Part shown: piece by piece, positions 13,181 to 52,648 of the stretch
Numbering within the stretch: position 1 is the stretch's first letter
How the letters are laid out: each line of letters starts with the position of its first letter
Origin: an uncultured Candidatus Saccharibacteria bacterium
GTDB taxonomy: Bacteria; Patescibacteriota; Minisyncoccia; Phycocordibacterales; UBA2100
Direction: 5' to 3'
Length of the DNA: 64,000 bases
Assembly (NCBI GenBank): GCA_964437185.1
Contig: CAYTFU010000005.1
Location: forward strand, 2,528 to 66,527
Program-made: the position numbers and the translations under genes
Notes under the pieces: model-generated
Told to the model about the DNA's origin: nothing
What the model saw: the letters and a program-made list of their open reading frames with translations, nothing else
The model's database searches: none

Positions 13181-13201
13181 GTATGTGCCGGAGGAGAGAC
13201 T
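13181..13201. repeat. 21-bp direct duplicate of the 3' end of tRNA-Leu(CAA)
   Basis: atgtgccggaggagagactcg also at 13225..13245 (tRNA 3' acceptor/T-arm), copies 44 bp apart. Confidence 0.6.
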
Positions 13202-13227
13202 CGGTCACGAATCCTGTATTTGTTGTG

Positions 13228-13308
13228 TGCCGGAGGAGAGACTCGAACTCTCATGGGTTGCCCCACACGATTTTGAGTCGTGCGCGTATACCATTTCGCC
13301 ACTCCGGC
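13228..13308 (-). tRNA. tRNA-Leu(CAA)
   Basis: manual cloverleaf: acceptor GCCGGAG/CTCCGGC, anticodon loop CTCAAAA, long variable arm, T-loop TTCGAGT; 81 nt, CCA not encoded. Confidence 0.85.
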
Positions 13309-13875: not shown

Positions 13876-14793
13876 ATGAGCGCAAAAACGAAAGTCTTGA
13901 TTGTCGTCGGCCCTACTTCCTCTGGAAAGAGCGCGCTCGCCGCGGAGCTCGCGCGCCGATTTCACGGAGAGATTATCTCTGCAGACTCACGACAGGTGTA
14001 TCGCGGGCTCGACATCGGCACCGGCAAAGTCACCAAGCGCGAGATGCGCGGCGTTCGGCATCACTTGCTCGATGTGGCATCGCCGCGCACGGTGTTTACC
14101 GCAAATGACTTCGTGGAGCGTGCGCGCCGAGCAATAGAAGATATCGCCGCCCGAGGAAAGTTGCCCATAGTCTCGGGCGGCACGGGATTCTATATCGACT
14201 CGCTTCTCGGCCGCGTCATACTGCCTGCCGTGCCTCCCAATTTGAAGCTGAGAGCGCGGCTGCATACCAAATCCGCAGCCAAGCTTTACCGTATGCTTGA
14301 ACAGCGCGACTCTGCCCGAGCACTAAGCATGGACACGCCGAGCGAGCGCAACAACAAAGTCCGCCTCATTCGTGCACTTGAAATCGCGGAGAGTCGCGAG
14401 AGCGCAAAACATATCGATTTACGAAATTGTTATGAATCGCTGTGGATTGGTATTGCGCCGCCGCTTCAATTGCTCGAGAAAAAGATCGCCGCTCGACTAG
14501 CGGCGCGCATGAAAAAAGGCATGGTCGCCGAAGCGAAGCGCCTGCACTTAGCGGGTCTTTCGTACAAGCGAATGCATACGCTTGGCCTTGAGTACCGCGC
14601 GCTCGCTTCCCTATTACAAGGTCGCATTTCGCGCGCAGAAATGGCAACACAACTGCAATCCGCGATCAGAAAATACGCCAAACGACAAATTGCCTATTGG
14701 AAACGCAACAAAGAAATCGCATGGTTCGAAGCTCCTAATGCACCGCGCATCTGGAAAATGGTTGCGAAGTGGGATGCAAGGCGGGCGATGTAG
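13876..14793 (+). CDS. miaA: tRNA dimethylallyltransferase
   Basis: VGPTSSGKS P-loop, MiaA blocks; 3' end overlaps tRNA-Trp by about 12 nt. Confidence 0.9.
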   Translation: MSAKTKVLIVVGPTSSGKSALAAELARRFHGEIISADSRQVYRGLDIGTGKVTKREMRGVRHHLLDVASPRTVFTANDFVERARRAIEDIAARGKLPIVSGGTGFYIDSLLGRVILPAVPPNLKLRARLHTKSAAKLYRMLEQRDSARALSMDTPSERNNKVRLIRALEIAESRESAKHIDLRNCYESLWIGIAPPLQLLEKKIAARLAARMKKGMVAEAKRLHLAGLSYKRMHTLGLEYRALASLLQGRISRAEMATQLQSAIRKYAKRQIAYWKRNKEIAWFEAPNAPRIWKMVAKWDARRAM

Positions 14794-14852
14794 GAATCGA
14801 ACCTACGACGTCGGTTTTGGAGACCGAAGTTATACCATTTAACTAATCGCCC
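14782..14852 (-). tRNA. tRNA-Trp(CCA)
   Basis: manual cloverleaf: acceptor GGGCGAT/ATCGCCC, D-stem GTTA/TAAC, anticodon stem TCGGT/ACCGA, loop CTCCAAA, T-loop TTCGATT; 71 nt. Confidence 0.85.
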
Positions 14853-14915
14853 AATTTTGGCTTGCGTAAGGTCTGCAGCCGTTGAGAGAGTATAACGCAC
14901 CTCACTTCAGCCGAC

Positions 14916-14964
14916 TACTTCTTAGACTCCTTGTGCTTCGTGTGCGCTTTGCACCACTAGCAGT
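14916..14964. repeat. 49-bp direct duplicate of the 3' end of rpmG (degenerate, in-frame TAG)
   Basis: near-identical to 15083..15131 (last codons plus stop of rpmG); 3 mismatches. Confidence 0.7.
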
Positions 14965-15081
14965 TCTGGGAAACCCACTCCGCTTGCTGACGGATTCCCA
15001 TACCTTCCTCCACGGGGAACCGGCAGGTTCCCCGACCCCCTCCTTCTGCAAGTGGCTCGCAAAAGGCATTCGTAAACTCTC

Positions 15082-15240
15082 TTACTTCTTAGATTCCTTG
15101 TGCTTCGTGTGCGCTTTGCACCACTTGCAGTACTTTTTTAGTTCCACCTTGCGGGTTACGAGTTTGCGGTTTTTGCGTGACCAGTAGTTGATGCGGGCGC
15201 ACTTGCCACACGCCAATTTGAATAGTTGATCCTGAGACAT
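15082..15240 (-). CDS. rpmG: 50S ribosomal protein L33
   Basis: MSQDQLFKLACGKCARINYWSRKNRK...LKKYCKWCKAHTKHKESKK, zinc-ribbon L33 pattern; start placed inside the 15082..15354 ORF. Confidence 0.8.
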   Translation of the reverse strand: MSQDQLFKLACGKCARINYWSRKNRKLVTRKVELKKYCKWCKAHTKHKESKK

Positions 15241-15280
15241 GCGCGGCACTATACGGTAATTAGCCCCATTTTGCAAATTT

Positions 15281-16213
15281 TTAACTGCCTTCACCCGCCG
15301 GATGCTCCCTTTCATACTCCTCGACCATCCTGAAGAATGCTGACGTAGGCCCACGGGGCATAAGCACCTTTGCTGGGAACGCCTCAGTCAAGTCCTCCTC
15401 TGTTTTCGCCCTCGCAACCCGCTCTGAAAATACTTTCCACATTTCCTGGTTCACTGAGCCGTCGGCTTTCACAAACTGCATCCAGAGCGCAGGCGCGGCT
15501 AAAAATTTTTTGGTGTCACCAATCGCCTCGACGGCCTCTAAGGACTCTTGATACTCGATGGGAAACAATTCGCGGTAACGGGGCAAATTATATAGCCAGG
15601 ATTGTCCGTTCACCATCTTGTTTTCGTCTGGATATAACGTGCGAATTTCTTTAAACATCTCGTACAATTCGCGCTTTCTTCTTTCCAGTTTGTCGAGTGA
15701 CAAGGGACCTCCTCCGACATTATCTCGATTGTCAAAGTGTACGTTGATTTCTCCGGGGCGAGAACTATCCATCGGTTGAACATCGTAATGAAAACAACCG
15801 AATCGGTGCTCGGTTCGCATATTACGCCCTTCCTTCAAGCTGTTATATTTTTCGTACGCAATTTGGGCCACGTCCTGAAGTTTATTAGCAGAGACAAGGG
15901 GTGTCGCTTGCTCTATAAAATCTTCCCAAATTTTCCAGAGCGCATCGTATGTAGCCTTATCTCGACCGGGCAACTCATGCCCAAGCACATTAAAAAACGG
16001 CGTGTGAGACGACAAAGCTTCTCTAAACGGTATTTCCTTCAATCTTGAAGCTGCGTCGGCGTACTCCACCATTACCTGAAAAACTTCCCTACTGTATCGA
16101 ACTTCCTCGTTAAGATCATCAGAAAGCTGAGACGGTGCTTGGGGTCCCTCAAGCGAACCATTCTTACGATCGCCCGCCGTTTTCCCCACTGCTCTTATGG
16201 GCGTCTCGCGCAT
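15281..16213 (-). CDS. hypothetical protein
   Basis: long ORF 15281..16300 trimmed to avoid overlap with 16248..16670; no recognised motif. Confidence 0.4.
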   Translation of the reverse strand: MRETPIRAVGKTAGDRKNGSLEGPQAPSQLSDDLNEEVRYSREVFQVMVEYADAASRLKEIPFREALSSHTPFFNVLGHELPGRDKATYDALWKIWEDFIEQATPLVSANKLQDVAQIAYEKYNSLKEGRNMRTEHRFGCFHYDVQPMDSSRPGEINVHFDNRDNVGGGPLSLDKLERRKRELYEMFKEIRTLYPDENKMVNGQSWLYNLPRYRELFPIEYQESLEAVEAIGDTKKFLAAPALWMQFVKADGSVNQEMWKVFSERVARAKTEEDLTEAFPAKVLMPRGPTSAFFRMVEEYEREHPAGEGS

Positions 16214-16247
16214 ATCAATAGAAACGATTTCTATCCTACGTAGCGAC

Positions 16248-16670
16248 CTAGGCCCGAGGACAGATGCTGTTCCACGGTCCAAATTCGGTATTTCCCCCAA
16301 CGAGCGTCCGCATGATTGTGTCCACCACTAGCCAACCCATGAGGATAATGACAAGACCAATCGCAACATTGGTAAAGACCTTTTTTGCCTTTGTCGTCTT
16401 ATTCATATTGCCCATAGCGGTCATGTAGACCCAGCCCGCCCAGGCGAACAGAATGGCCGAGAGAAATACCGCAATATAGATAGCTGTGTTGAGAATGTTT
16501 TGCGCAAGCGTCGCAAGATGACACACAGTACACTCCGTGCCACTGAGAGAAGTACCGTCGCAGGGCACCACCTTGTTCAAGACGTTCTGCTGCGCCGTGG
16601 CGAGAGATGGAAGTGCAGTAGAAATGAGGAGCATCAACAGCAGGATCGTCGCTGCTCTCGTCCGAATCAT
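16248..16670 (-). CDS. VirB2/TrbC-like pilin-type small membrane protein
   Basis: signal peptide (ALPSLATAQQ), Cys-containing hydrophilic segment, two hydrophobic helices; same architecture as the 24862..26810 array. Confidence 0.55.
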   Translation of the reverse strand: MIRTRAATILLLMLLISTALPSLATAQQNVLNKVVPCDGTSLSGTECTVCHLATLAQNILNTAIYIAVFLSAILFAWAGWVYMTAMGNMNKTTKAKKVFTNVAIGLVIILMGWLVVDTIMRTLVGGNTEFGPWNSICPRA

Positions 16671-24253: not shown

Positions 24254-24305
24254 CTTAAGATCAAATGCTCGAAAGAGCGTGTGGGTTCGAGTCCCACCCC
24301 CGGCA
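24222..24305 (+). tRNA. tRNA-Leu(TAA)
   Basis: manual cloverleaf: acceptor GTCGGGG/CCCCGGC (one GU), anticodon stem TTTGA/TCAAA, loop CTTAAGA, long variable arm, T-loop TTCGAGT; 84 nt. Confidence 0.85.
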
Positions 24306-24307
24306 CA

Positions 24308-24485
24308 GACTGAGCGGAGCGAGTGCTGTGCTGGGGAGCACAGCGCCTGCGCGCTGTGCGTGTGGGACTCGAAAGGCGCAGGCATGTCGCACGAGTACGT
24401 GCGACGCCGAGCCGGGGTCGCGGAAATTCAATCGTGTCGACGATTGAATTATTCGTGACCGAGTTTACCCCCCACCCCCGGCACA
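24308..24485. repeat. hairpin-rich GC-rich insert ending in a 15-bp duplicate (cccacccccggcaca, 24471..24485) of the tRNA-Leu(TAA) 3' end
   Basis: perfect hairpins gtcgcacg/cgtgcgac and aattcaatcg/cgattgaatt; duplicate of 24293..24307. Confidence 0.6.
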
Positions 24486-24702: not shown

Positions 24703-24784
24703 GGGCAGATGGCGAAATTGGTAGACGCACCAGCCTTAGGAGCTGGCCCCGCAAGGGATGGGAGTTCGAGTCTCCCTCTGCCCA
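24703..24784 (+). tRNA. tRNA-Leu(TAG)
   Basis: acceptor GGGCAGA/TCTGCCC, anticodon stem CCAGC/GCTGG, loop CTTAGGA, long variable arm, T-loop TTCGAGT; 82 nt. Confidence 0.85.
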
Positions 24785-24861
24785 CGAGTGAAGCGAGTGG
24801 AGACAAGTCCCTGCGAAGCAGAGGGGCTCTGCCCACAGGCAAAAGCGCGAAGAATTCGAAT

Positions 24862-35202: not shown

Positions 35203-35242
35203 GTGTTGTTTATAAATTGCTATAGCGTTAAACAAACAACAT
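35203..35242. repeat. hairpin repeat A1 (24-nt core gtgttgtttataaattgctatagc plus imperfect palindromic arms)
   Basis: core identical to 35848..35871; arms tgttgtttat / taaacaaacaaca. Confidence 0.7.
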
Positions 35243-35845: not shown

Positions 35846-35889
35846 ACGTGTTGTTTATAAATTGCTATAGCATGGAATAAACAACACGT
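35846..35889. repeat. hairpin repeat A2, perfect 13-bp-stem palindrome acgtgttgtttat...ataaacaacacgt with 18-nt loop
   Basis: core identical to A1; begins 7 nt upstream of the GTG start of the Cas2-like ORF, so an operator/5'-UTR position. Confidence 0.7.
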
Positions 35890-50715: not shown

Positions 50716-51705
50716 TTAGTGCCGAAAATGGCGGATGCCGGTGAAAACCATGGCAATGCCTGCGGCGTTCGCAGCGCTAATTGAATCCTGATCTTTAAGA
50801 GAACCGCCCGGCTGGATAATCGCCGTAATCCCCTCCTGCGCAGCCACGTCCACGCAATCAGGAAACGGCATAAAAGCATCGGAGGCCATTACGGCGCCTT
50901 CGAGAGAAATTTTCTCGTCGGCCGCCTTAATCGCGGCAAGCCGCGCGGAGTATATGCGGCTCATCTGCCCCGCGCCTATTCCTACTGTCGCGCCATCTTT
51001 TGCATACACGATCGCGTTGGACTTTACGTGTTTGCATACGGTGAATGCAAAGAGTAGGTCAGCGAGTTCTTTTTCTGTTGGCACGCGCGTGGTGACTGTT
51101 TTTACCTCACCGTCAAACACCTTCGCATCGGCGGTCTGTACGAGTACGCCACCCGCGATTGATCGCATGGTCGTACGAGGTTCCGCAGGATCGGGCATTG
51201 ATCCCGTGAGGAGCACGCGCACATTCGGCTTCACCGAAAGAATCGTGAGCGCTTCTTCCTCGGCATCGGGAGCGATGATTACTTCGAGAAATATTTTGAC
51301 AAGCTCGCTCGCAAGATCGGCAGTGATTTTCGAATTGAGCGCGACGATACCGCCAAAGGCAGAGACGGTGTCGCACGCAAACGCTCGCATGTAGGCATCG
51401 TGAATCGTGTCCGCAACCGCCACTCCACACGGGTTCATGTGCTTCACGATCACAGCGGCTGGCTCCTCAAACTCGGCGACGCATTCAAAGGCCGCGTCGG
51501 CGTCCTGCAAATTGTTGAAGCTGAGTTCCTTCCCCTGCACCATGCGCGCAGACGCGACGCCCGGTCGGACGTCGCCTGGATTTCTGTACAAAGCCGCTGC
51601 TTGGTGAGGATTCTCACCGTAGCGAAGCGCGCTTATTTTCTCGAGCCTCAGCGAGAGAGGCGATGGAAGCTGTTCTTGCTCGTGATCCGCTTCGTTCATT
51701 GCCAC
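50716..51705 (-). CDS. purH: AICAR transformylase domain protein (PurH C-terminal domain only, no IMP-cyclohydrolase/MGS domain)
   Basis: [10 protein letters not shown] near the N-terminus corresponds to about residue 220 of bifunctional PurH; GTG start; 329 aa. Confidence 0.8.
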
Positions 51706-52648
51706 ATACTACTACGCCTCAGCTCATTTCTCCATCGCGAAACTACTCTACAACGATCACCTTGCCGTACACGCCGCCCTTCACGTGATTGTGGTACGGC
51801 CATGTACCCACCTTCTCAAACTTCGTAGTATACGTTGCTCCAACTGCACACTGGTCAAATGCAGTGTCAGTCGTGTCGGGACAGTGCTCTTTGAGTGTCG
51901 TACCCGCGTAGCCTTTGTGATCCGGGTGCATCGCGGTCGCTACCCACATATCGGGACCTGTGCTCGTGAAGGTAACGGTACTTCCCTTCTTAACCGTCAC
52001 TTCAGCGGGAGTAAACGCTGCACCATCGTACGAAACTCCACACGGGTTCATGTGCTTCACGATCACAGCGGCTGGCTCCTCAAACTCGGCGACGCATTCA
52101 AAGGCCGCGTCGGCGTCCTGCAAATTGTTGAAGCTGAGTTCCTTCCCCTGCACCATGCGCGCAGACGCGACGCCCGGTCGGACGTCGCCTGGATTTCTGT
52201 ACAAAGCCGCTGCTTGGTGAGGATTCTCACCGTAGCGAAGCGCGCTTATTTTCTCGAGCCTCAGCGAGAGAGGCGATGGAAGCTGTTCTTGCTCGTGATC
52301 CGCTTCGTTCATTGCCACATACTACTACGCCTCAGCTCATTTCTCCATCGCGAAACTACTCTACAACGATCACCTTGCCGTACACGCCGCCCTTCACGTG
52401 ATTGTGGTACGGCCATGTACCCACCTTCTCAAACTTCGTAGTATACGTTGCTCCAACTGCACACTGGTCAAATGCAGTGTCAGTCGTGTCGGGACAGTGC
52501 TCTTTGAGTGTCGTACCCGCGTAGCCTTTGTGATCCGGGTGCATCGCGGTCGCTACCCACATATCGGGACCTGTGCTCGTGAAGGTAACGGTACTTCCCT
52601 TCTTAACCGTCACTTCAGCGGGAGTAAACGCTGCACCATCGTACGAAA
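51423..52648. repeat. perfect tandem duplication, 2 x 613 bp
   Basis: 51423..52035 equals 52036..52648; junction gcaccatcgtacgaaac|tccacacggg. Confidence 0.85.
51743..52318 (-). pseudogene. chimeric ORF created by the duplication: PurH residues 1-95 fused to the C-terminal 96 residues of the cupredoxin-like protein
   Basis: first 95 aa identical to 50716..51705 product, remainder identical to the C-terminus of 52356..52820 product. Confidence 0.6.

Follow-up and report, generated by a model that had tools for sequence, protein, structure and literature searches.

A duplicated rpmG 3' end in a Patescibacteria genome as the probable trace of a small, protein-less cassette that carries a replacement gene end

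Two 3' ends at one ribosomal protein gene

How does a ribosomal protein gene come to be followed by a second, interrupted copy of its own 3' end? The question is raised by rpmG, encoding ribosomal protein L33, in a 64,000-nt stretch of contig CAYTFU010000005.1 from an uncultured Candidatus Saccharibacteria bacterium (hereafter the window; features of the rpmG locus lie on its minus strand unless stated otherwise). The 167-bp unit from ~15125 to 14959 is, with high probability, an insertion belonging to a family of short cassettes that carry a replacement gene end with them, and this family, found in ultra-small bacteria (Patescibacteria), is large and apparently undescribed.

The rpmG gene (15082..15240) was delimited by its open reading frame (ORF) and translation, with an ATG at 15240 and a TAA stop at 15084-15082, and encodes a protein of 52 amino acids (aa) that shares 75-92% identity with L33 of 80 Paceibacteria-type genomes; exact-protein look-ups of L33 in its 52-aa and 90-aa forms, and of MiaA, matched no record. 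A repeat search showed that positions 14916-14967 repeat 15083-15134 over 52 nt (49/52 identical) with a start-to-start spacing of 167, and blastn-short aligned a 49-bp span of this repeat at 47/49 identity (E = 3.9e-18). The initial annotation of the window had described a 49-bp duplicate with three mismatches located 167 bp downstream of the gene; the duplicate and its distance were recovered, whereas the mismatch count applies to 52 bp and drops to two over 49 bp. The in-frame TAG that it attributed to one of these mismatches is also present: read in the L33 frame, the lower copy gives NC, stop, WCKAHTKHKESKK, stop, the first stop arising from Lys39 (AAG to TAG, position 14959). The terminal stop codons of the two copies differ as well, being TAA in the live copy (15082-15084) and TAG in the lower copy (14915-14917).

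Between the copies lies a 118-bp spacer (14965-15082), and the perfect 8-bp-stem hairpin annotated within it, GGGGAACC-GGCA-GGTTCCCC, maps to 15014-15033. The spacer also contains one arm of an inverted repeat, as CCACTTGCAG (15055..15046, minus strand) is the exact complement of the rpmG codons CTGCAAGTGG (15130..15121), which are the first bases of the direct repeat. Misassembly as the source of the duplicate is excluded in practice, because the same architecture is found in the independent assemblies L005, L026, L032 and L037 (L numbers denote loci and contigs used for comparison), and that of L032 is present also on the metagenome contig L100. ORF calls and comparison with relatives revealed no conserved ORF in the 118-bp insert. 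A small ORF with a Shine-Dalgarno-like GGAGGAA, followed by AUG/UUG-GGA-AAA-CCG-UGG.. and entering the pseudo-end, is intact in L005 (MGKPWVSQSCLWCKAHTKHKEAKK) and was rejected as a conserved feature, being broken in the window and L032 and missing in L026 and L079; the hairpin covaries instead.

Empty and occupied sites among relatives

For comparison we used 80 loci with L33 relatives, one genome per species, all from Paceibacteria-type metagenome-assembled genomes (MAGs; Kaiserbacteria, Nomurabacteria, and others). The conserved downstream neighbour of rpmG is tRNA-Trp(CCA) (14780..14852; ARAGORN and Rfam), and this adjacency is kept in most of the 80 relatives. The spacer between the two genes measures 229 nt in the window vs. 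15-120 nt in most relatives, of which about 60 have a short native spacer; subtracting the insert (229 - 167) leaves 62 nt, a typical value. In the closest relative without the insert (L001), the locus reads ..AAGAAGTAG tcgcttgaagagaggtacgatatactc.., with tcgcttgaagagaggtacgatatactc directly behind the rpmG stop TAG, and continues to tRNA-Trp. The window carries the homologous ..AAGAAGTAG tcggctgaagtgaggtgcgttatactc.. after the lower copy (stop TAG), and the sequence after its live stop, TAA gagagtttacgaatgcc.., has no counterpart at empty sites. Thus, the lower copy and the sequence downstream of it represent the original locus, and the stretch after the live stop is foreign.

Read downstream from the gene, the occupied locus begins with T1 (15083..15134), the repeat copy inside the live gene, delimited by the repeat search and by the foreign sequence that follows. 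It resembles an attL-like hybrid, in which the left few nucleotides would belong to the host and the remainder up to the stop would have been supplied by the element. That the right part of T1 arrived with the insert is suggested because it carries the stop TAA and the codon GAA, in place of the native-like TAG and GAG of the lower copy and L001. The interval that must hold the left recombination joint is 15095..15125, bounded by mismatches between the two copies at 15126 and 15094. After the replacement stop follows sp1 (15056..15081; gagagtttacgaatgccttttgcgag), a variable loop defined by the fold and by its lack of homology to empty-site spacers, which contains CCTTTTGC, extending the predicted pairing with rpmG TGCAAAG. 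Interpretation of sp1 as a native host terminator with the element inserted behind it was dropped on the same lack of homology. Next come antiT (15046..15055), the segment CCACTTGCAG that is the exact reverse complement of rpmG CTGCAAGTGG (15130-15121), and the conserved core GGGGTCGGGGAACCTGCCGGTTCCCCGTGGAGGAA (15005..15039) with hairpin HP1 at 15014-15033, delimited by family alignment and covariation. The HP2 region (14968..15004), placed by family alignments, is atypical in the window, GGGAA[UCCG-UCAGCAAG-CGGA]GUGGGUUUCCC plus a tail. The last part is T2 (14915..14967), the displaced native rpmG 3' end or pseudo-terminus, which repeats T1 and is continuous with native downstream sequence as judged by L001; it holds the in-frame TAG at 14959-14957 and the native-type stop TAG at 14917-14915, and its first nucleotides (..GAACTGCT) are the right end of the element.

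The order of rpmG, insert, pseudo-terminus, and tRNA-Trp recurs in L005, L026, and L032, and in L037, which is cut at a contig end, antiT and core start at the same place. Together with the window, these four other Kaiserbacteria-type MAGs bring the rpmG carriers to five, among which the insert is homologous along its length and HP1 shows compensatory changes (GGGGAACC/GGTTCCCC, GGGAAAAC/GTTTTCCC, and GGGAAAC/GTTTCCC). In all five, antiT tracks the synonymous codon choices of the host in rpmG: CCGTTTGCAG of L005 pairs with CTGCAAATGG via one G.U pair, CACTATTTGCAG of L032 and CACCATTTGCAG of L037 pair with CTGCAAATGGTG, and CCCATTTGCAA of L026 pairs with TTGCAAATGG. The live ends of L005, L026, and L032 have common unusual synonymous variants (..CAT AC. 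A.A CAT AAR..), and their pseudo-ends resemble the native ends of non-carrier relatives; the live rpmG 3' end looks element-borne. In a neighbour-joining tree of ClpB, carriers are interspersed with non-carriers (for example, the sister of L005 is L007 and that of L032 is L016), indicating repeated gain or loss at the rpmG site. The proposal of the initial annotation that a regenerated gene 3' end occurs here together with a short structured insert is thus borne out by the empty-site comparison and the element-like live end; the pseudo-terminus is shared by some relatives, with evidence of insertion and a patchy distribution.

Other features also occur around rpmG in these relatives. In L002, L007, L020, L030, L041, L059, and L079, a ~220-aa ORF lies between rpmG and tRNA-Trp, ~75-800 nt past the rpmG stop, with an N-terminal helix-turn-helix (weak Pfam HTH_23) and the motifs YWCEGEK and FTNSDP, LAGLIDADG-like by eye. 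It may be a free-standing homing endonuclease at the same hotspot, and no gene-end duplicate lies beside it in those seven relatives. At L002:3883-4000, the first ~18 codons of rpmG are present as a pseudo-5' end following a native-looking promoter, 118 nt ahead of the live start; a 73-nt insert that contains two hairpins (GCCGAC..GTCGGC and CCCCGAC..GTCGGGG) lies in between, as if another kind of small element had replaced the start of the gene. L073, a 2.7-kb contig, carries rpmG twice in full and in opposite orientations, and in L055 the final 63 nt of rpmG recur in inverted form where the contig ends; both cases are probably artefacts of assembly at contig ends.

A cassette family at many gene ends

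The core motif is also present in L079, there between two copies of a tRNA-Tyr 3' end, and the pattern GGGGTCGGG-N8-24-CCGTGGAGGAA matched at least 120 metagenome contigs. Hairpin-bearing copies have a constant order of parts and a constant orientation relative to the target gene, and most are flanked by target duplications. The gene end T1 is followed by a variable stretch of 20-100 nt, often with a terminator-like hairpin and a T run, then by antiT, a 10-16-nt segment complementary to the new left junction, and a purine linker of 5-8 nt. The core has the form GGGGUCGGG-HP1-CCGUGGAGGAA and may be followed by a further hairpin; HP2, whose lower stem covaries and whose apex bears AAACCGUGGGUUU, leads into a tail (..GGAGYGAGAU or ..GCGAAGCGU) and T2. 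Cassettes measure 100-200 nt, with size and part order uniform across more than 100 copies, and target duplications range from 8 to 66 nt by target.

HP1 is paired to 98.3%, with compensatory changes in four pairs, and the hairpin covariation score of 0.273 (0.126 in shuffles) was reached in none of 500 shuffles. A covariance model matched the window copy at 14959-15047 (59.9 bits) and nothing else in the window above 15 bits, and no second copy with this core (type A) was found within the 64 kb; elsewhere the model recovered divergent copies at L002:1241-1315, in L037, and as second copies in L112, L139, and L108. A search of the window against Rfam 15, including group I and II introns, hepatitis delta virus (HDV)-like ribozymes, HEARO, and omega-RNA-type families, returned no family other than tRNAs at the gathering threshold. 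The HDV-like ribozyme drz-agam-1 scored 22.3 bits (threshold 37, E = 0.053) on the plus strand, opposite to the insert, and in the window only; it was dropped, being absent in L005, L026, L032, and L079 and lacking strands for P1/P2. The core-plus-HP2 pattern was absent from 2.9 million viral contigs. Another scan of viral contigs matched only an unrelated phage (seven identical contigs) with a hairpin and ribosome-binding site before a gene, about the chance level by a rough estimate.

Among the 106 distinct copies that could be classified, 60 are located immediately 3' of a tRNA (19 kinds) or tmRNA gene on the same strand, at a median distance of 55 nt from tRNA end to core, so that the suggestion of the initial annotation of like insertions at tRNAs holds for the same cassette; the target-complementary segment, the second hairpin, and the size of the family go beyond it. 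Protein-coding gene ends also serve as targets, namely those of rpmG, rpsI (L119 and L125), and a GAPDH-like gene (L108, identified only by eye from the encoded C-terminus), and in L105, L160, L169, and L181 the target is the 5' end of a family-4 glycosyltransferase gene on the opposite strand. In total, at least 25 unrelated target sequences are used by one core family, and the gene body is always contiguous with T1.

Two cases are informative about the origin of the live gene end. In the rpsI case L125, T1 ends ..CAG TGG AGC AAG AGA TAA and T2 ends ..AAG TGG TCT AAA CGA TAA, the same peptide in different codons (e.g. Ser as AGC vs. TCT). As the ends are synonymously recoded, both are genuine coding ends from different lineages. 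In L160, a 41-nt repeat is identical in both copies, of which the live one is preceded by a start codon and MKPIQN and the displaced one by MPEKT. Together, L125 and L160 show a foreign, functional replacement of a gene terminus.

The target-complementary segment and signs of a folded single strand

The complementarity of antiT was assessed by symmetric scoring of the ~30 nt before the core against the T1 region. A duplex of at least 9 net Watson-Crick pairs, with a mean length of 15, was found in 79 of 115 distinct copies, vs. one of 115 with shuffled antiT. Across 29 clean cases, the identity of T1 and T2 is ~0.3 upstream of the antiT-complementary span, 0.5-0.65 in its first half, and 0.85-0.9 in its second half and the next ~10 nt. 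Since identity rises inside the span, antiT complements the left product junction, made of host left flank and element gene-end copy. It pairs less well with the right end of the element itself (in the window CTGCtAGTGG vs. CTGCAAGTGG; at tRNAs GUGAGAU vs. GUUCGAAU). In silico, the window stem CTGC.AGTGG / CCACTTGCAG represents inverted target-like sites able to form a hairpin.

Several features bear on the form in which the cassette folds. Among stem mismatches, G.T outnumbers A.C both in HP1 (17 vs. 6) and in the duplex of T1 and antiT (21 vs. 10). A purine tract 5' of the 'UC' turn (15034-15047, minus strand, in the window) mirrors the 5' strand of HP1 to a degree reached in none of 2000 shuffles. 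The two covary as mirror images in G-run length (4/3, 5/4, 6/5) and in their tails (AGGT/AGGA, GAGT/AGAG, AGAT/AAGA), with T tolerated opposite A, and in L002 both flanking U's (GGGGUC / CCGUGG) are changed to C. This mirror-repeat pattern suggests an intramolecular purine-motif triplex, a structure better known for DNA than for RNA. The predicted stem is also present in the centroid DNA fold of the permuted 167-nt unit, and mismatch bias, mirror repeat, and modelled fold would together lend weak support to a single-strand fold.

No enzyme was found linked to the cassettes. The ORFs within +/-5 kb of ~120 copies include no recurrent neighbouring protein, clustering into housekeeping families only (ClpB, release factors, glycosyltransferases) besides four LAGLIDADG ORFs, and in no instance does an integrase or cargo lie between the repeats. 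None of 35 window ORFs, including a 339-aa ORF next to rpmG, has a recombinase, transposase, or reverse-transcriptase domain, and TnpA is missing from the window ORFs and the cassette flanks (+/-5 kb). The same flanks contain no intI; the core, with the consensus GGGGUCGGG..CCGUGGAGGAA..AAACCGUGGGUUU, has no R''/L''-L'/R' boxes, and the copies are dispersed at gene ends.

How the cassette may have entered rpmG, and competing explanations

In the reconstruction that we favour, a cassette would have entered rpmG near codon 39, bringing the last ~13 codons and a stop and leaving L33 intact, and the native terminus would have been shifted 167 bp downstream, where it is now presumably decaying (TAG). 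The non-autonomous cassette may move as a small single-stranded circle, in which the gene-end copy would pair with antiT to give a hairpin resembling the target duplex. Conserved core and hairpins would be recognised by a recombinase acting in trans, which would exchange one strand at the left border of the repeat, and replication would finish integration. The order expected from such a reaction (host-left / gene-end copy, loop, antiT, core, right end / native gene end) is the one observed. The exchange would also replace the imperfect pairing of antiT with the element right end by perfect pairing with the host left flank, which would favour integration, and the choice of target would be written in the nucleic acid of the cassette rather than in a dedicated integrase. 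The predicted excised junction is ..GGGTTTCCCAGAACTGCT joined to AGTGGTGCAAAG..GAATCTAAGAAGTAAGAGAG (also written ..GGGTTTCCCAGAACTGCT joined to AGTGGTGCAAAGCGCACACGAAGCACAAGGAATCTAAGAAGTAAGAGAG..), and the predicted restored empty site is rpmG ..TACTGCAAGTGG..GAGTCTAAGAAGTAG tcggctgaag. The hairpin mechanism, which draws on analogy with known systems, is put forward only tentatively; insertion and hairpin mechanism taken as one are our best explanation, and one that we hold to be just barely probable. A more radical version, in which the integration site would be programmed purely by nucleic acid, through an element-borne target copy and its complement beside a conserved, possibly triplex-containing core, and the reaction carried out by a general sequence-independent enzyme of the candidate phyla radiation (CPR) or by the folded nucleic acid itself, appears doubtful; it would amount to a natural, re-targetable means of gene-end replacement of ~150 nt.

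A number of points weigh against this reconstruction. No recombinase was found, and neither a circular junction nor a polymorphism of empty and occupied sites was seen within one population. We know of no precedent among Xer or integron integrases for a recombinase that accepts more than 25 unrelated targets, and the acquisition of a new gene-end copy with a matching antiT is left unexplained. The G.T bias is modest and equally compatible with sense-strand RNA, and folding of the window copy reaches z-scores of only about -2. The assignment of T2 as native and T1 as element-borne depends on few informative sites in the window and on the patterns of relatives. About 10% of the pattern matches look like chance (no hairpin), and the metagenome set, drawn with an exact pattern, is biased towards one subfamily. 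Finally, the literature in which no description of such elements was found was restricted to open-access text.

The main rival explanation is a guide-RNA homing element, which we consider unlikely. Here, core and hairpins would be the scaffold of a small RNA whose guide is either antiT (on the 5' side) or the adjoining native gene end (on the 3' side, as in TnpB omega-RNAs), and a nuclease or recombinase encoded elsewhere would act on naive alleles, into which repair copies the cassette. A guide followed by a scaffold of two to three hairpins does resemble single-guide RNAs, the complementarity of antiT to its target follows synonymous changes of the host, the variety of unrelated targets implies programmability, G.U pairs outnumber A.C on the sense strand, and no protein is linked. 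However, terminator-like hairpins and U runs often lie directly upstream of antiT, where no conserved promoter is visible (e.g. in L125), and no nuclease family co-occurs in the flanks. The perfect fit of antiT to the occupied junction T1 means that a carrier allele would not be immune, the rpsI antiT fits the naive (T2-type) sequence poorly, and the triplex suggested by mirror-repeat covariation is a form more typical of DNA.

Three further readings fit poorly. More than 100 instances of the same small size and part order, with both hairpins maintained by compensatory changes and the complementarity of antiT to the junction maintained as well, make it quite improbable that the cassettes are passive scars, in which a former tyrosine-integrase island or prophage has been deleted to attL, arm DNA, and attR, similar to a cis-mobilizable element (CIME). 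Although the set of targets (3' ends of tRNA, tmRNA, rpmG, and rpsI genes, and rare 5' ends) is classical for tyrosine-integrase elements, and direct repeats with a replacement gene end are a hallmark of their integration, the repeats enclose no integrase or cargo, no flanking protein recurs, the core is absent from viral contigs, and one core family at 25 or more targets is unexpected for integrase-specific arm DNA. An intron-like RNA, in which antiT acts as an internal guide and a minimal ribozyme or host factor splices out the insert to join rpmG to the lower copy, would account for the conserved structure of the core and for the complementarity of antiT to a continuous ligated-junction sequence, as in group I guides (P1 plus P10). 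Yet the unspliced gene is already complete with a stop, often with a terminator before antiT, the lower copy of the window has an in-frame TAG, and the core is too small for known self-splicing folds; no intron or ribozyme family was matched, with drz-agam-1 as the sole hit falling below threshold on the opposite strand and failing to recur in relatives, and we judge splicing very improbable. Least credible of all is a local 3'-untranslated region or terminator of the rpmG-tRNA-Trp unit, formed by slippage and gene conversion, or an assembly artefact. Hairpin pairing between antiT and the rpmG codons could make the mRNA more stable at its 3' end, and T1 and T2 are nearly identical in the window, but the same core occurs at dozens of unrelated genes, most relatives lack it at the rpmG locus, independent assemblies agree, and the duplicate differs from its partner, which is unexpected for a collapsed or duplicated assembly repeat. 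A diversity-generating retroelement with a template and variable repeat pair was rejected, as the T1/T2 differences of L005 (T/C, A/G, T/G) are ordinary synonymous ones and not adenine-specific; no reverse transcriptase was found among the scanned window ORFs.

Comparison with known elements

The proposed insertion by a folded single strand has its closest counterpart in CTXphi and related integrative mobile elements exploiting Xer (IMEX). The integrating form of CTXphi is single-stranded, its two inverted target-like sites form a hairpin imitating the target, and one pair of strands is exchanged (PMC3442271). Like these elements, the cassettes are without a recombinase of their own and have inverted target-like sites able to fold into a hairpin, and the order left at dif, by our own derivation from PMC3442271, matches T1, sp1, antiT, core, and T2. 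In contrast, CTXphi and IMEX depend on dif and XerCD, whereas the cassettes are found at 25 or more unrelated gene ends, and protein recognition of the stem sequence therefore cannot set their specificity; they are also only 100-200 nt long, non-coding, and equipped with a replacement gene end.

With regard to targets, the cassettes resemble integrative and conjugative elements (ICEs) and other tyrosine-integrase islands and prophages. Both rpmG and rpsI are ICE targets in streptococci, where the element supplies a replacement end and the gene survives (PMC4701971). The classes of targets, the direct repeat of the gene end (49/52 in the window), and the intact L33 ORF through T1 agree with this, but such elements are kilobases in size with an integrase by att, whereas here there is no integrase in the flanks and no ORF, only a folded core and a target-complementary segment. 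As described in PMC4792948, integron cassettes recombine as folded single strands, with structure conserved over sequence and the integrase encoded elsewhere. To that extent both would be non-autonomous units recombined as a folded single strand, as proposed here. The present cassettes differ in having no R/L box consensus and no intI/attI array, and each carries its own target copy and complement.

IS200/IS605 insertion sequences and their miniature derivatives, the palindrome-associated transposable elements, transpose as single strands with subterminal hairpins and a 4-nt guide, inserting 3' of a tetra- or pentanucleotide and without target duplication. In IS200/IS605, the cleavage or target site is recognised by base pairing with this short guide 5' of the hairpin, and small non-autonomous derivatives exist. 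Hairpins are common to these miniatures and the present cassettes, which differ by a guide of 10-16 nt, a duplication, which speaks against membership, and a replacement gene end. CIMEs are flanked by attL and attR, carry no recombination genes, are mobilisable in trans, and represent heterogeneous deletion products of ICEs; compared with a CIME or decayed island, the present family is uniform, structured, and much smaller, and no autonomous relative was found. Homing-endonuclease insertions such as that in the mitochondrial atp6 of Allomyces replace a gene end and leave the old one as a pseudogene, with an endonuclease ORF present. They are alike in the foreign synonymous terminus and displaced native end, but the insert here is non-coding. 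In contrast to miniature inverted-repeat transposable elements, the inverted segments are target copies rather than element termini, and the duplications of 8-66 nt are not of fixed length.

Other insertions and features in the window

Insertions of this kind were found at four of the eight candidate sites examined in the window (seven tRNA genes and rpmG). By repeat and core comparison, a cassette of the same architecture with a different core (type B) follows tRNA-Leu(UAA) at 24307..24485 on the plus strand. Its parts are antiT GTGGGACTCGAA at 24362-24373, CCGGGGTCGCGG in the core at 24412-24423, a right end ttcGTGACCGAGT with a mini-hairpin ..TTCGTGACCGAGT, and the repeat CCCACCCCCGGCACA at 24471-24485, a copy of 24293-24307. 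The type B core was initially noticed in L118 and L128 (L128/L200), where it lies next to type A in a tandem arrangement. At tRNA-Leu(CAA) (13185..13245, minus strand), the last 19 nt of the gene (13245-13227) are duplicated 42 nt downstream (13203-13185), and the 23-nt remnant between these repeats ends ..ggattcGTGACC (..GGATTCGTGACC), a type B right end as in L128. Sequence comparison placed a 41-nt insert (gagtgaagcgagtggagacaag..) at tRNA-Leu(UAG) before a 10-nt repeat CTCTGCCCAC (24776-24836, plus strand). The inserts at tRNA-Leu(CAA) and tRNA-Leu(UAG) look like internally deleted cassettes.

Around rpmG, miaA is convergent with rpmG and tRNA-Trp, approaching from the opposite side, and its stop region overlaps the tRNA-Trp 3' end by 14 nt (14780-14793). 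The rpmG gene appears almost leaderless, with TTGCAA, a 17-nt spacer, and TATAGT ending 7 nt before the ATG (15241-15282, minus strand), and a TATACT box (~14888-14893) between pseudo-terminus and tRNA-Trp is conserved in empty-site relatives. Directly upstream of rpmG lies the 339-aa ORF mentioned above (15281-16300, minus strand), a lineage-specific insertion beside the hotspot that matches no Pfam family and for which tblastn gave no counterpart at the 80 related loci, in which a pilin-like 140-aa ORF directly precedes rpmG. Elsewhere in the window, a purH-like ORF (AICARFT/IMPCHase) overlaps in its 5' part with a perfect direct repeat of at least 300 nt (51422-51721 and 52035-52334, spacing 613 nt), which may reflect either recent duplication or faulty assembly. 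Two 39-nt direct repeats (35203-35241 and 35848-35886), imperfect palindromes (GTGTTGTTTATAAATTGCTATAGC..AAACAACA), flank a 198-aa PaaX_M (Cas2-like) ORF.

Implications for Patescibacteria

Integration at gene 3' ends with regeneration of the end is known from ICEs, and hairpin-based single-strand recombination is known from CTXphi and integrons. The combination of a protein-less unit of 100-200 nt, a folded core, a replacement end, a complement of the junction, and dozens of targets was not found in Rfam or the open-access literature. If our reading is correct, some of the smallest bacteria would hold many elements of ~150 nt that encode no protein and enter essential genes precisely and without harm, each bringing a spare gene end, often with a terminator, and choosing its target via a short complementary segment. 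This would extend the hairpin-based recombination of CTXphi and integrons to arbitrary targets specified by homology, and would add a conserved structured nucleic-acid motif that is missing from Rfam. It would point to a compact, programmable system of integration. It would also explain the frequent partial duplicates of tRNA and gene ends in Patescibacteria, which annotation may misread as pseudogenes or assembly errors. Even when read as cautiously as possible, the family offers a useful marker for the dynamics of insertion and excision in unculturable organisms.

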